Source of the DNA: Escherichia coli
GTDB taxonomy: Bacteria > Pseudomonadota > Gammaproteobacteria > Enterobacterales > Enterobacteriaceae
DNA length: 64,000 bases
Assembly (NCBI RefSeq): GCF_024700885.2
Contig: NZ_CP117016.1
Strand: one strand, 5' to 3'
Shown here: positions 19 to 7,283 of the stretch, in pieces
How positions within the stretch are numbered: the first letter of the stretch is position 1
Layout of the letters: the number at the start of each line of letters is the position of its first letter
Notes under the pieces: model-generated
What the model saw: the letters and a program-made list of their open reading frames with translations, nothing else
What the model was told of the DNA's origin: nothing
Database searches by the model: none
Position numbers and translations under genes: made by a program

Positions 19-840
19 TTACCTAGTTACCTTTTTTAACTGCCGCTCAGCCCATGCTTCTTCAATATCAAACCGGGTCACCAGCGCATCATAGAATTTC
101 TTAACTGTTTTTTCCCATGACGCGCGTGTTATCTGGTTTGTCACCTCGCATATAGCATTAAATGCCTCCGTTGATGGTAGCCTTTCATAGCCACGACCAC
201 CACAACGCTGGCAGTCTCTGATAACAGGCATACCACGTTTTACCGACTCTTCACGATGAATGGCGACACCACGCCCACGGCAATCCTTACAGGCGGTGGA
301 AACCTCACCCTTCCCGCCACACTCCGGACAGGCAACTTTTACCACCTCCCTGACTTTTTTCCATTCTTCCCAGTAAGACGGATACACACCTTTCGTACAC
401 TTTGCCCATACCGGCGGCTTACCATCCGGATACTGGACCTTGTTTGTAAAAACTACGCTTTCAATAAATTTTTCCCCATAGCAACAAGGGCACAGCTTTT
501 TACTCGCTGCGCTGCGGGCATAATCCTCAAAAGCGCACGAAGCCATAATGCGCATCACTACCGGTTTTATTTCTGCCGGAAGTTTTCTCAACGCCGCCAC
601 ACGATCGCACCGACTGAGTGCATAATCTGCCAGTAATTCTGTTGCCCGCGCCCTGTCATTCATACTGATGCCCATCTTCCCCAGGAACGCAGAAAACCCC
701 ATCTCAGCCCGATTCTGTGTCATGCCCTGCGCGGCCATCACATCAGTGATACTCAGCGCATCTTTTGACGTTGAGGCCGATGCATCGGTCAGGCAAGGGG
801 ATTTTGGGGAGTAGTATTTCGGTAAATCTTCCAGTTTCAT
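19..840 (-). CDS. phage late-gene antitermination protein Q-like (QuuQ-type, zinc-finger)
   Basis: 273-aa ORF with repeated CxxCxGxG zinc-finger motifs (CPECGGKG, CKDCRGRG, CQRCGGRG); lies downstream of rusA and the DUF968 gene, the position of Q in lambdoid nin/late-control regions. Family call from memory. Confidence 0.55.
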   Translation of the reverse strand: MKLEDLPKYYSPKSPCLTDASASTSKDALSITDVMAAQGMTQNRAEMGFSAFLGKMGISMNDRARATELLADYALSRCDRVAALRKLPAEIKPVVMRIMASCAFEDYARSAASKKLCPCCYGEKFIESVVFTNKVQYPDGKPPVWAKCTKGVYPSYWEEWKKVREVVKVACPECGGKGEVSTACKDCRGRGVAIHREESVKRGMPVIRDCQRCGGRGYERLPSTEAFNAICEVTNQITRASWEKTVKKFYDALVTRFDIEEAWAERQLKKVTR

Positions 841-3011: not shown

Positions 3012-3167
3012 TTACTCCTCAGGTTCGTAAACTGTGAAGACAGCGACCTCCGTCTGGCCGGTTCGGATTCGTACCTCGCAGAGGTCTTTCCTCGTTACCA
3101 GTGCCGTCACTATGACGGTTAAACAGATGACGATCAGGGCGATTAACATCGCCTTTTGCTGCTTCAT
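3012..3167 (-). CDS. hok: Hok/Gef-family type I toxin (51 aa membrane peptide)
   Basis: Minus-strand ORF below the 60-aa cutoff of the ORF track; translation MKQQKAMLIALIVICLTVIVTALVTRKDLCEVRIRTGQTEVAVFTVYEPEE is essentially the HokD/Hok sequence as I recall it. Structured GC-rich 3' region and upstream leader present. Confidence 0.85.
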   Translation of the reverse strand: MKQQKAMLIALIVICLTVIVTALVTRKDLCEVRIRTGQTEVAVFTVYEPEE

Positions 3168-3424
3168 AGCCTGCTTCTCCTTGACCTTTCGGTCCGTAAG
3201 AGGCTAATCTCTATGTGTCGCATAGATATGGCCTCAGATTAATGTTAAACGTCTTGCAGGACGCGTAATGTTACCTGGGGCTTTTCTCTATCTGCCGTTG
3301 GTGTTCATGCCCGAGGCAGATAGCCTCAAGCACCCGCAGTCATTCTACTTAACTAAGATTTCCCCGCAAACCGTTTTTGTCCAGCACAATAAATATCCAA
3401 CTAAACCAATGGAGTTCGCTGTAT

Positions 3425-3604: not shown

Positions 3605-4144
3605 TATTCCTCCTACAATCAATGTGCAATTACATTTAAACACACCTCAATTTGGCCGGACATATAAATATCTAAACTAGAAAAAATCACTTACATAGCG
3701 TTACAAACTCTTTAGTCTAAAGGTTCATCGTAAAACATTCCCCATACTTATCAGTCCGTTCCGCGCCAGGTAGCTTATTGCCTTATCTGGCAACCTATAA
3801 TCAGGTTTCCGCTTTTTCAGTTGGCTGGTCGTTTAACCGACATAGTTAACCCATTAATCTAGTTGCCGGATGTTGGTGGATTTTCGCGTTTTAGTTGTTC
3901 ATAAAAGTGCACAGCTTTAACCAGTTCTTCTGATGTAACCAGGGCTGGTGAGGCAGTGAATAAGGCCTGAATTTGATAGTTCGGCCTGTCGTTACAATCC
4001 TCTTTTTTCGGTACATATTTCCAGTCAACAGACCACTACTTCTCCTGAAAGTCCGTAACGCCTTTTTTCACGTAGCGATATCGCCATGCCACTGGTTTTG
4101 CTTGCCCCGCCGTTTCATACCCTTCCTGATAATTAATCTCGCTC

Positions 4145-4319
4145 ATTCATCGCCCCACTCATCACAATATGCTTCGACCGGATTTTTTCCTGCTTCATAA
4201 TCATCACGCCATGCTTCAGCATCAGCAGCACTGCCACCACGTAACTCTGCATAGTCCATTAACAGTTCATGCCATTTTTCAAAACTGACGTTGTATTTAG
4301 TTGAACCAAAATCAGCCAT
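4145..4319 (-). CDS. hypothetical small acidic protein (58 aa)
   Basis: ORF MADFGSTKYNVSFEKWHELLMDYAELRGGSAADAEAWRDDYEAGKNPVEAYCDEWGDE; start overlaps the stop of the upstream 60-aa ORF; below the ORF-track cutoff. Confidence 0.3.
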
Positions 4320-4494
4320 TTTGCTCTTCCTCTTCGTCTTTTATTTCGTGATATGAGTAATTGCAGTAGTTAAAGAAAATACCTTTTGCTTCGTCATGTA
4401 TTTCATCAGGCGTCGCATCAGCATCCACTTCGAATTCATCCTCGAAATCTCCACCAGCCATTCCCGTTTCAATAATTATTTTGAACTTTCGCAT
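4312..4494 (-). CDS. hypothetical small highly acidic protein (60 aa)
   Basis: ORF rich in D/E (GDFEDEFEVDADATPDEIHDE...DEEEEQ); translationally coupled to the next small ORF. Confidence 0.3.
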   Translation of the reverse strand: MRKFKIIIETGMAGGDFEDEFEVDADATPDEIHDEAKGIFFNYCNYSYHEIKDEEEEQNG

Positions 4495-5001
4495 TTCACT
4501 ACCGCCCTTTCGGGTGGCCTCCTGCTGTTCTGAGGGTGCAGAAATCCCTCCGGTTAAGGATTAAATTTTTAACAGTGCTAAATTTAATTATTCAGTTTTG
4601 GATTTTGTCACCCTGCGTATCCGCGCTTTCCCGTTACGCTCAATCTGAATTAGCTTTTCTATATTTTTTCGCCTTTCCCGTTCCTCCTGGCGCAAGAGCC
4701 TTACATCATCTGCCAGTCTGGTTTCTCTTTTCGCCACAGAGAGCATCCAGTCAAATGGCTCCACAACTGCACCGCAGATTTTACAGCGGACCTGACGCTC
4801 TTTTTCGTCAACCCGGACAGAAGCGTGATGGCAATATGGTCTTTCCGATGGCTCATAAAGAAAATTAACCTGATTACGAGGGTCATCCTCTTTTATCGGA
4901 AATAAAACGATATTGCTTAACTAATCCTCTGGTTTTATTTCCATGCTCCTCTCCTTTGATGCGAATGCCAGCGGCAATTGAAGCCTGATAGCTAATTTCA
5001 C

Positions 5002-5424
5002 TCACAGTACCGCCTCCTGAAAATTACCCTGATAGAAAGCCAGTACACGCTGCATAGCTTCGCTCTTCCGGCACTCGCGACAGATTATATTCAGGCGCCT
5101 GTCGTAGCGGCGTATTTCTCCGTCTGGTAATGACCAGATTAGGTCCGGATCAACCGCAGATGGTTTCTTCGGCTTTGCCCTTGAGAGCTTTTTACGGGCA
5201 TTTTGCCAGTCCTTACGCGCCTGTTCAGACGGGAATAACCCGTAACCAGAGTTGTATACATCGCCACTGGCAACCAGCTCTCTGGCCAGAACGCTCATCA
5301 GATATCTTGTTGCCCCAGTTTTAGTTTCCAGTCGTCGTAACGTCTCGCGCCCACTCTGGCGTACGAGTTCAACAACCTGCCCTTTAATTTTTTCCCGCTC
5401 TTCTTGTGTAAAAACTTTTGCCAC
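5002..5424 (-). CDS. hypothetical prophage protein (140 aa)
   Basis: ORF immediately downstream of the replication gene in the same operon orientation; basic, with a CRECRK motif; no confident family. Confidence 0.4.
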   Translation of the reverse strand: MAKVFTQEEREKIKGQVVELVRQSGRETLRRLETKTGATRYLMSVLARELVASGDVYNSGYGLFPSEQARKDWQNARKKLSRAKPKKPSAVDPDLIWSLPDGEIRRYDRRLNIICRECRKSEAMQRVLAFYQGNFQEAVL

Positions 5425-5464: not shown

Positions 5465-6541
5465 TTACCCCCTGAAGCCCGGCGGAATTTCGTTATCCGG
5501 TTCAGAAATATGATTCACACAACGCTGGTTGTTCGTGCCGCTTACCGGGAGCAACCAGGGGTTCTCAAAATTCCGGTCCGGTCCAAAAAACGTCGTCGCT
5601 CGCTGAACAAATTCCGTTCCCGTTTTCCCGGTAGCCGCCAAGTATCTTGCGTAACGCCTCACGCCATCCAGCATGGCCTCTGGTGGCACCCCCTCGCGTA
5701 ATCTGGCCTTCCAGGCACTGAAAGCGGATTTCTTCGGGTTTGCTCCGGCACGCAACGGGTACTCCCGCCAGACCTGTTCGAACACATCCGGATAATCCAC
5801 TCGTCCCACAGACTGCCCGGTGTTTTCCGGGACTACCCGATCGGCTTCCCGCTGAATGGCGGAATCGGCTTCGGGCTGCTGCAGTTGGTGTGATTGCTCC
5901 GGCCTTGCGGTCATCACCTGCTGCACAGCGCCCGAATCGGCTTTCAGCGCATACGCTGAATCGGCTTCCGGTGTCGTGCCTGCTGGCTGACCAAGATTGA
6001 CGGTCTGAACATCCCCTGCCTGGTTCGTGGCGTTTTTTACGCCATGGACCATAGTGTTTTGATCTTCTTGATCTGTATCTTTATCTGTATCTTTATCTGT
6101 CGTGACTCGTCGTGACATGTGCGTGACATTTCGTGACGCGCCGTGACAATCGCCATTTTGTTCCCGCTTTCTTTCCCTCTCTCGCTGCGCCCTCTTGCGC
6201 TCTGCAGGAGATTTTGCGGTTTGCGAAATATTGCCGTTGTCCTCTTTAAGCACCTGGCGTTTTTCCCATCCAGTGATTAAATCACCATCAAGTACCCGCC
6301 CCTGCATCGTCTGCAAAATTGAATCAATTACCTCTTCTGTCACGTCGAGCGCACTTGCCAAATCTTCTGTCGTGACATCAATGTGACCTCGCGTGACATT
6401 TCGTGACGCGCTCACCAGGAGGTGGATATACACTGCCATCACTGTTGCAATTGGCTGCCCTGACACCCTGGCAATTGTTCGCCACTTAGGGTCATTTGGC
6501 ATGTCATGCCATAATCTGAGCCAGGCGTTAGCCATACTCAC
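5465..6541 (-). CDS. putative phage replication initiation protein (lambda O-like / YdaU DUF1376-like)
   Basis: 358-aa ORF downstream of the cro-like and YdaT-like genes; embeds two arrays of CGTGAC repeats at about 10-bp spacing, as lambda ori lies within O; contains a DKDTDKDTD linker repeat. Confidence 0.6.
   Translation of the reverse strand: MSMANAWLRLWHDMPNDPKWRTIARVSGQPIATVMAVYIHLLVSASRNVTRGHIDVTTEDLASALDVTEEVIDSILQTMQGRVLDGDLITGWEKRQVLKEDNGNISQTAKSPAERKRAQRERERKREQNGDCHGASRNVTHMSRRVTTDKDTDKDTDQEDQNTMVHGVKNATNQAGDVQTVNLGQPAGTTPEADSAYALKADSGAVQQVMTARPEQSHQLQQPEADSAIQREADRVVPENTGQSVGRVDYPDVFEQVWREYPLRAGANPKKSAFSAWKARLREGVPPEAMLDGVRRYARYLAATGKTGTEFVQRATTFFGPDRNFENPWLLPVSGTNNQRCVNHISEPDNEIPPGFRG
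6101..6147. repeat. iteron-like array: 5 x CGTGAC at 10-11 bp spacing (candidate phage ori)
   Basis: CGTGAC at 6101, 6111, 6122, 6132, 6142; preceded by tandem 12-bp repeat atctgtatcttt at 6071-6100. Confidence 0.55.
6371..6407. repeat. second iteron-like array: 4 x (C/T)GTGAC at 10-11 bp spacing
   Basis: Repeats at 6371, 6382, 6392, 6402; shares an identical 20-bp block gcgtgacatttcgtgacgcg with the first array (6121-6140 vs 6391-6410). Confidence 0.55.
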
Positions 6542-6606: not shown

Positions 6607-7032
6607 TCAATGCACAGCCACAATATTTCCTGCAGGGCCACCACGATTCATCTGGTTGAAACCAGCGATCGCCACTGCGACAAAATCATCAGCGTCTCTC
6701 ACCAGTCGTTCCCGCGTCTCCACTAGTTCCCGAAAATAGGCTGAGCTATGACTGCGCATTCGGGCCACCAGCAGAGGTGGCATTGCTTTTTCGATAGCTG
6801 GTAACAACGCCTGAATTTTTTTAACCGCATCAGGGGTGTCTTTCTCCACCCAGCGGAAAATTTTCTGAGTATTGCGAGCCAGGGCTTCCGGATGGCTGTC
6901 GTCATACAGTTCCGGGAACGTCATTCCCAGCTCGAAATACGCTTTGGTAATTTTCACAGCCGGTACTTTTTCGCCGTCCGGATGCGCCCAGGCATTCATC
7001 GCCATGCGGATGTGTTCATGCTTGATTTTCAT
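6607..7032 (-). CDS. YdaT-like prophage protein
   Basis: 141-aa ORF MKIKHEHIRMAMNAWAHPDGEKVP... matching my recollection of Rac YdaT; follows the cro-like gene with ATGA overlap. Confidence 0.6.
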   Translation of the reverse strand: MKIKHEHIRMAMNAWAHPDGEKVPAVKITKAYFELGMTFPELYDDSHPEALARNTQKIFRWVEKDTPDAVKKIQALLPAIEKAMPPLLVARMRSHSSAYFRELVETRERLVRDADDFVAVAIAGFNQMNRGGPAGNIVAVH

Positions 7033-7283
7033 GAATCAACTCCCATCAGCTTTTTCGTAGTAGTTTTATTCCTGCCAATAGTTAAAATTGCATCGGCAGA
7101 AAATAATCCGTTTGATGCAAGAGCGATTTTTTCAGCGTAATTTGTTTCGCCGGTATATTCTGTGCGAGGCAATTTTCCGTTATCCATCCATTTATAGATT
7201 GCTCTTTGGCTGACACCACAAACGTCGGCCACAACAGCAACGCGAACAGTTTTGATTACATCTTCAAGTGTTTTCTGGTTCAT
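7029..7283 (-). CDS. Cro-like / YdaS-like HTH regulator
   Basis: 84 aa from internal Met (MNQKTLEDVIK...); HTH-like segment VCGVSQRAIYKWM; divergent from the DicA-like repressor gene. Start chosen to leave a 79-bp operator region. Confidence 0.55.
   Translation of the reverse strand: MNQKTLEDVIKTVRVAVVADVCGVSQRAIYKWMDNGKLPRTEYTGETNYAEKIALASNGLFSADAILTIGRNKTTTKKLMGVDS

Follow-up and report, generated by a model that had tools for sequence, protein, structure and literature searches.

Are very small, overlapping open reading frames in a prophage genuine genes, and if so, what could their strongly acidic products be doing in the cell? This question is raised by a window of 64,000 nucleotides of Escherichia coli DNA (contig NZ_CP117016.1 of assembly GCF_024700885.2), in which three such frames, here called ORF1, ORF2 and ORF3, follow each other on the minus strand (Table 1). 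The initial annotation, made from the letters of the DNA, had described them as a cluster of three tiny, translationally coupled genes for highly acidic peptides, and had speculated that these might be DNA mimics or anti-defence factors. This description is partly confirmed: the locus encodes two real acidic mini-proteins, followed by the head of a dead third gene.

Layout of the cluster and its prophage setting

The 801-nt segment from 3900 to 4700 of the window is 100% identical to DNA of E. coli MLI114, where the region belongs to a Qin/Rac-like lambdoid prophage. A search of 5,426 complete E. coli genomes with the same query gave matches in 2,347, and in 1,529 of these the match covers at least 80% of it. 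On the coding strand, a cro-like HTH gene is followed by a YdaT-like gene, an O-like gene, DUF977, two small genes, ORF1, ORF2 and the pseudogene, and further downstream by sok/hokD, DUF968, RusA and the Q antiterminator. A consensus scan of the coding (minus) strand between 3400 and 5500 gave no promoter-like or terminator-like site, and no Rfam RNA family overlaps the ORF1-ORF3 cluster; the ORFs therefore lie within the early-right operon as internal cistrons. The gene upstream of ORF1 encodes a CxxC/HH zinc-ribbon-like motif and then a basic coiled-coil-like tail, and it may be 5'-truncated, since its homologue in phage vB_EcoS-640R1 is 137 aa long. A record deposited as 'Actinobacillus phage vB_Apl-pPE4' (PP818812.1) contains DNA with 91% identity to the present lambdoid prophage region of E. 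coli; its host label, Actinobacillus pleuropneumoniae, looks doubtful.

Table 1. Features of the acidic gene cluster and its surroundings (positions in the 64,000-nucleotide window)
Feature	Position	Strand	Description
ORF1	4312-4494	-	60 aa
ORF2	4143-4319	-	58 aa
ORF3	4036-4146	-	36 aa; remnant, 5' end of pseudogene
Decayed third gene, phrog_660-type	3725-4146	-	RefSeq 'frameshifted; internal stop' in MLI114
In-frame TAG, codon 37 of third gene	4036-4038	-	from translation
Putative Shine-Dalgarno of ORF1, AGGAG	4519-4523	-	24 nt 5' of ATG (linear distance)
Predicted hairpin GCCACCC-GAAA-GGGCGGU	4501-4518	-	7 bp, GAAA loop; between AGGAG and ORF1 start
Putative Shine-Dalgarno of ORF2, GAGGA	4328-4332	-	8 nt before ATG, inside ORF1 coding sequence
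Gene upstream of ORF1	4588-4911	-	RefSeq: ATT start, 107 aa
DUF977	5002-5424	-	from prophage gene order
O-like replication gene	5465-6541	-	from prophage gene order
sok antisense-RNA region	3165-3335	-	Rfam RF01794, 100.8 bits
hokD toxin gene, complete	3012-3167	-	directly downstream of pseudogene
Q antiterminator	19-840	-	from prophage gene order

The three overlapping minus-strand frames are indeed present and ORF1 had been placed correctly, but the coordinates first given for ORF2 (4145-4319) and ORF3 (4038-4148) were 2 nt too high. The start-to-stop overlaps are real. The stop of ORF1 and the start of ORF2 share 8 nt, ATGGCTGA at 4312-4319, and the stop of ORF2 and the start of ORF3 share 4 nt, ATGA at 4143-4146; the longer overlap is preserved in 88 of 92 distinct sequences. 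With this overlap, a common strand and no promoter or terminator in between, ORF1 and ORF2 have what appears to be the layout of translationally coupled genes on a polycistronic mRNA. The initial annotation had also taken conservation in related prophages and the presence of ribosome-binding sites as tests of its genes. ORF1 and ORF2 are kept in hundreds of prophages, and a Shine-Dalgarno sequence can be recognized for both, GAGGA for ORF2 and AGGAG, together with a hairpin, for ORF1. ORF3 is preceded by a weak GGGG, 6 nt upstream.

In the start region of ORF1, the AGGAG lies too far from the ATG in the linear sequence. The hairpin between them would restore the spacing, as 6 nt are left before the ATG once its 18 nt are folded, and we infer that the hairpin and the distant AGGAG may together constitute a split ribosome-binding site. 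The AGGAG is present in 16 of 20 distinct upstream variants, with AGGAA in one and GGGAG in another, while the two variants with a different upstream context have no aligned AGGAG. The window copy of the hairpin has one A.C mismatch in its stem and a fold energy of -10.1 kcal/mol; the value is -15.5 kcal/mol for the commonest variant and -14.0 kcal/mol for a compensated CCACCC/GGGUGG variant with an A-U pair. Over the 20 variants, 96% of the hairpin cells are paired and most changes are wobble-compatible C-to-U transitions. A single double change, from G-C to A-U, occurs among them, and the covariation is not statistically significant (143 of 500 shuffles). The hairpin accompanies ORF1 across at least three different upstream contexts.

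Distant Shine-Dalgarno sequences are known from genes 38 and 25 of phage T4, where a stable hairpin restores the normal spacing to the AUG. By analogy, the succession of AGGAG, 18-nt hairpin, 6 nt and AUG in front of ORF1 may work in a similar way. The likeness has its limits, however: the ORF1 stem in the window is mismatched, an alternative, weak Shine-Dalgarno sequence (GGCGGU) lies within the 3' arm of the hairpin itself, and the Citrobacter-type relatives of ORF1 abut their upstream gene and have no hairpin.

Two families of small acidic proteins and a broken third gene

Both ORF1 and ORF2 can be assigned to families that are already catalogued, in each case as uncharacterised proteins to which no function is attached. 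Residues 2-53 of ORF1 align to the whole Pfam model of DUF7167 (PF23768; model positions 1-60) with 49 bits against a cut-off of 24.4 (E=6e-13), and ORF1 also matches PHROG 1997 (phrog_1997, E=1.7e-28). The matches identify it as a member of DUF7167, and RefSeq labels it a 'DUF7167 family protein'. A core MRKF..IET...FEV.DDAT.EEI..EA..F.N.CNY is conserved, and the stand-alone proteins have about 56-60 aa. Relatives extend to Klebsiella, Citrobacter, Yersinia and Pseudomonas. Outside prophages the family is rare, with 14 phage and 15 plasmid records, and our literature search found no paper on DUF7167. The AlphaFold2 model of ORF1, made with an alignment of 34 diverse homologues, has a pLDDT of 87 and predicts a beta-hairpin (2-9, 16-23) that packs against a helix (29-43), with an extended acidic tail at the end. 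The BFVD hits of this model are all uncharacterised phage proteins with a length of about 57 aa, for example from phAPEC8 (E=1.3e-3, TM 0.7) and Lactococcus phage 949.

The 58 residues of ORF2 align to columns 76-137 of the 143 columns of PHROG 519 (phrog_519, E=5.1e-22), and ORF2 belongs to this family. It covers only part of the profile; some members have additional N-terminal sequence. The family also differs from the PHROG in its range: it occurs on conjugative plasmids as well, which fall outside the coverage of PHROGs. Pfam has no family for ORF2, nor does it give a significant match for any of the 31 members of the ORF2 family that were scanned. Among 1.84 billion proteins, the family has 60 representatives at E<=1e-3; long, multi-stretch matches in this search (P0193, P0202) were dropped as low-complexity artefacts. 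The conserved motif takes the form F..W...GGS.aD..AWR.DY.aG.TP..A..DEWG. The AlphaFold2 model (pLDDT 87, from an alignment of 31 diverse homologues) predicts a three-helix bundle with helices at 13-27, 34-42 and 47-55.

The acidity had been noticed correctly for ORF1 and ORF2, but not for ORF3, which has a net charge of +1. ORF1 consists for 30% of D and E, with a net charge of -13 and a pI of 4.1, while the corresponding values for ORF2 are 26%, -10 and 4.2. The window contains 331 ORFs of 50 aa or more, and these two are the most acidic of them. The property is family-wide, as the net charge ranges from -7 to -18 (median -12.5) in the relatives of ORF1 and from -4 to -15 (median -10) in those of ORF2. 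Both genes are under purifying selection: pN/pS averages 0.105 in ORF1 and 0.103 in ORF2, the comparison of ORF2 between the window and an IncI2 plasmid gives a dN/dS of 0.10, and of 79 distinct variants whose flanks are complete, 77 have an intact ORF1 and 78 an intact ORF2.

Whereas ORF1 and ORF2 thus stand as genuine among the three tiny genes first proposed, ORF3 does not. Intact relatives of the third gene, found in related prophages, encode 171 aa beginning MSEINYQEGHETAGQAKPVAWRYRYVKK. In the window, the frame holds 36 codons up to FQEK, then the TAG, and continues as WSVDWKYVPKKEDCNDRPNYQIQALF, with homology running on in frame past the stop. The homology is lost after ENPP, where an internal deletion and further stops occur. 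ORF3 as an independent tiny gene is ruled out by the homology past the TAG, by the pseudogene call of RefSeq and by the 171-aa relatives; as read from the DNA, it is the N-terminal stub of a gene of about 171 aa, inactivated by the in-frame TAG and subsequently by a deletion. Since the ATG of ORF3 overlaps with the stop of ORF2, the cell may nevertheless produce the 36-codon peptide. The third gene is cut to 104 aa or less in 33 of the 79 distinct variants, and remnants of 36, 40, 70, 76, 85 and 104 aa are seen among relatives, against 171 aa for the intact gene. In some phages, an Ead/Ea22-like gene takes the place of the third gene and has only the first few codons (MSEI.YQ) in common with it, which suggests a recombination junction just inside the start of the third gene.

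Separate cassettes on phages and plasmids

In the collected viral sequences, ORF1 and ORF2 seem at first inseparable, as both are present in 162 of the 163 viral contigs fetched with either protein. More distant relatives give another picture. Behind Citrobacter-type DUF7167 genes (62% identity), the next gene is, in four contexts, an unrelated ORF of 59 aa, and in Yersinia and Pseudomonas the neighbours of DUF7167 differ again. The 59-aa product (4171-4350 of the extracts) is conserved, non-acidic and begins MKTLERLKAANKDN; together with the Citrobacter-type DUF7167 gene it makes up a second two-gene arrangement with a different partner. Conversely, relatives of ORF2 are found where DUF7167 is absent: Enterobacter prophages have them behind Ead/Ea22 genes and P2-like phages behind the replication gene gpA, and elsewhere the preceding gene encodes an Rv2179c-like exonuclease. 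The DNA homology between the window, an IncI2 plasmid and an Enterobacter prophage runs exactly from the ATG to the stop codon of ORF2. On the IncI2 plasmid, the upstream DUF1187 gene ends on the same ATGGCTGA in front of an ORF2 copy that is 84% identical, and the ORF2 cassette therefore supplies the upstream stop codon and the coupling junction. An obligate ORF1-ORF2 pair is rejected by the different neighbours in Citrobacter, Enterobacter, P2-like phages and IncI2; as far as gene order can tell, ORF1 and ORF2 are shown to be separate single-gene cassettes.

The cassette of ORF2 is by far not confined to prophages. Homologues are found in 196 phage genomes, about 180 of which belong to virulent Ackermannviridae, and the members of PHROG 519 include Vi01_151c-type proteins of Kuttervirus. 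In Vi01 itself, Vi01_151c lies just after the major capsid gene and in no obviously early cluster, which argues against an early role. Homologues also occur on 554 plasmids, 516 of which are conjugative. In 415 of the plasmid copies the identity is 80-90%, and all sampled rows of this group are E. coli or Shigella plasmids of about 60 kb. More distant copies, with about 49% identity, occur on large conjugative plasmids of Klebsiella, Providencia and Aeromonas. The plasmid that was inspected, pZJ3920-3, is typed IncI2 and carries mcr-1; its ORF2 copy is WP_000753050 (84% identical; 7001-7177 of the extract), in the order CaiF/GrlA regulator, DUF1187, ORF2, SPFH, NfeD and T4SS. The copy is situated at the head of the T4SS cluster and about 16 kb from the relaxase genes, and therefore in no textbook leading region, which argues against a role upon entry.

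In two T5-like phages, Escherichia phage EP_H11 (3006-3662 of the extract) and vB_EcoM_IME392, the ORF2 domain is found as the C-terminal 55 residues of a 218-aa protein, whose N-terminal 160 residues make up a NADAR domain (Pfam E=7e-27). This extension is absent from other NADAR proteins of phages. As a clue to function the fusion was set aside, being too rare with only two near-identical phages.

Possible roles of the two acidic proteins

On the basis of these data, it is possible to speculate about the function of the two proteins. ORF1 and ORF2 are compact, folded and strongly acidic cytoplasmic proteins of about 60 aa, which would be made from a polycistronic early mRNA. Translation of ORF1 probably relies on the hairpin bringing the distant AGGAG near the start codon; that of ORF2 would restart on the ORF1 stop (ATGGCTGA), and that of the dead third gene on the ORF2 stop (ATGA). 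The two proteins would act independently and not as a complex, and each is most likely a stoichiometric binder and inhibitor of a host protein, contacted via a conserved surface of acidic and aromatic character, either early in the lytic cycle or upon entry into a new cell, in the service of host-takeover or anti-defence. An early setting is suggested by the lambdoid pR- and pL-side accessory regions and the P2 early operon, in which relatives of ORF1 and ORF2 reside. That the locus holds two real early-operon cassettes for independent host-protein binders is the explanation we consider best, although we would put it at slightly less than an even chance. The role of ORF2 is probably generic to incoming DNA, because the same cassette is used by temperate phages, virulent phages and conjugative plasmids, and owing to this spread across mobile elements the anti-defence idea, in itself a reasonable guess, is somewhat better supported for ORF2. 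ORF1 would be confined to phages. An alternative reason for the preservation in cryptic prophages could be that the lysogen benefits from it.

Small phage proteins with such a role are well known: Gp2 of T7 inhibits RNA polymerase and p56 of phi29 inhibits uracil-DNA glycosylase. With about 55-65 aa, an acidic surface and a beta-sheet-plus-helix architecture, they resemble the predicted model of ORF1.

Database searches gave no direct lead. Neither ORF1 nor ORF2 has a match in PADLOC-DB, a library of defence-system proteins, or in NCBIfam; in the PDB, neither single sequences nor family profiles yielded a hit below E=0.01, and no sequence or fold similarity to any solved structure was found, DNA mimics included. 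The supplements of two phage accessory-gene screens and of a plasmid leading-region study contain no matching sequence, and the paper on IncI2 pcnR does not mention the ORF2-family gene. An apparent literature match to PHROG-519 was a false one, to phrog_5197. The only link in the literature is that Kuttervirus members of PHROG-519 have been listed as putative anti-CRISPRs with borderline PaCRISPR scores of 0.48-0.54 (PMC9409062). This score is driven by composition and constitutes weak evidence; ORF1 and ORF2 match no Acr family, and no HTH aca-like gene is adjacent in the window.

It could also be imagined, more tentatively, that ORF2 is the founding member of a pan-mobile-element family that neutralises a widespread host barrier to incoming DNA, in the form of a self-contained cassette supplying its own upstream stop, and that ORF1 is another inhibitor, restricted to phages and built on a new small beta-alpha fold. 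The family would then range over lambdoid and P2-like phages, Ackermannviridae and T5-like phages, IncI2 mcr-1 plasmids and plasmids of Klebsiella, Providencia and Aeromonas. We regard this more far-reaching proposal as possible, at well under an even chance.

Literal DNA mimicry, which the initial annotation had brought up, is an unlikely explanation. In that case the carboxylates of one or both proteins would be arranged like the backbone of DNA, and type I restriction, BREX or other defence enzymes that bind DNA would be blocked in this way. T7 Ocr and ArdA are small, very acidic and expressed early, and ArdA also occurs on conjugative plasmids. ORF1 and ORF2 are likewise small, acidic and probably early, their acidity is extreme and conserved in the families, and ORF2 is common to phages and conjugative plasmids, as are ArdA-type genes. 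However, both proteins have half the size of Ocr and ArdA or less and are similar to them in neither sequence nor fold, so that beyond charge nothing speaks for mimicry in the literal sense. It is similarly unlikely that ORF2, ORF1 or both modulate the replication or recombination of the element itself, for instance via the host helicase, the clamp loader, SSB or RecBCD, and do not target a dedicated immune system.

It seems more doubtful still that ORF1 and ORF2 regulate prophage induction or the choice between lysis and lysogeny, in the manner of the small, non-essential ORFs in the exo-xis region of lambda. In the Stx phage ArgO145 and in several Citrobacter and Enterobacter prophages, the genes do lie in the early-left accessory region, near Ead/Ea22-like genes and xis/int. 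Yet homologues of ORF2 are common on conjugative plasmids and in the strictly virulent Ackermannviridae, neither of which has to decide for or against lysogeny, and at E<=1 Pfam yields only DUF7167, so that nothing ties ORF1 or ORF2 to the exo-xis proteins.

There is little probability that ORF1 and ORF2 are subunits of one complex or form a toxin-antidote-like pair. Such a relation would account for the conserved 8-nt overlap and the tight linkage (162/163 loci; 88/92 sequences), but the two genes stay together only as long as near-identical E. coli prophages are compared. DUF7167 genes of 62% identity have another downstream partner; at 84% identity, ORF2 stands behind DUF1187 with the same 8-nt overlap. 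Furthermore, the large negative charge on both proteins disfavours a tight heterodimer, and no growth-inhibition signal is known for the pair. Finally, that the ORFs are chance open frames or decaying junk of a cryptic prophage is scarcely credible: an open frame alone means little in a window with 331 ORFs of 50 aa or longer, and the description is true of the stub ORF3, but for ORF1 and ORF2 it is refuted by the family HMM matches, pN/pS values of 0.10 and confident predicted folds, and for ORF2 also by a protein sequence that is conserved across phages and plasmids in spite of saturated synonymous divergence.

As it stands, the outcome is routine, in that it sets the correct limits of two hypothetical prophage proteins, both already catalogued, and of a pseudogene stub. 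It would gain in importance if ORF2 were an anti-defence or host-takeover factor, as our preferred explanation of independent host-protein binders would have it. The same 58-aa cassette is located in the transfer region of IncI2 plasmids, by which mcr-1 colistin resistance is spread, and also in Kuttervirus and Taipeivirus phages, which are under consideration for therapy. One small target common to such different elements would, if true, be useful knowledge. The succession of Shine-Dalgarno sequence, hairpin and AUG before ORF1 may in addition provide a compact, testable candidate for structure-assisted translation initiation in a prophage.
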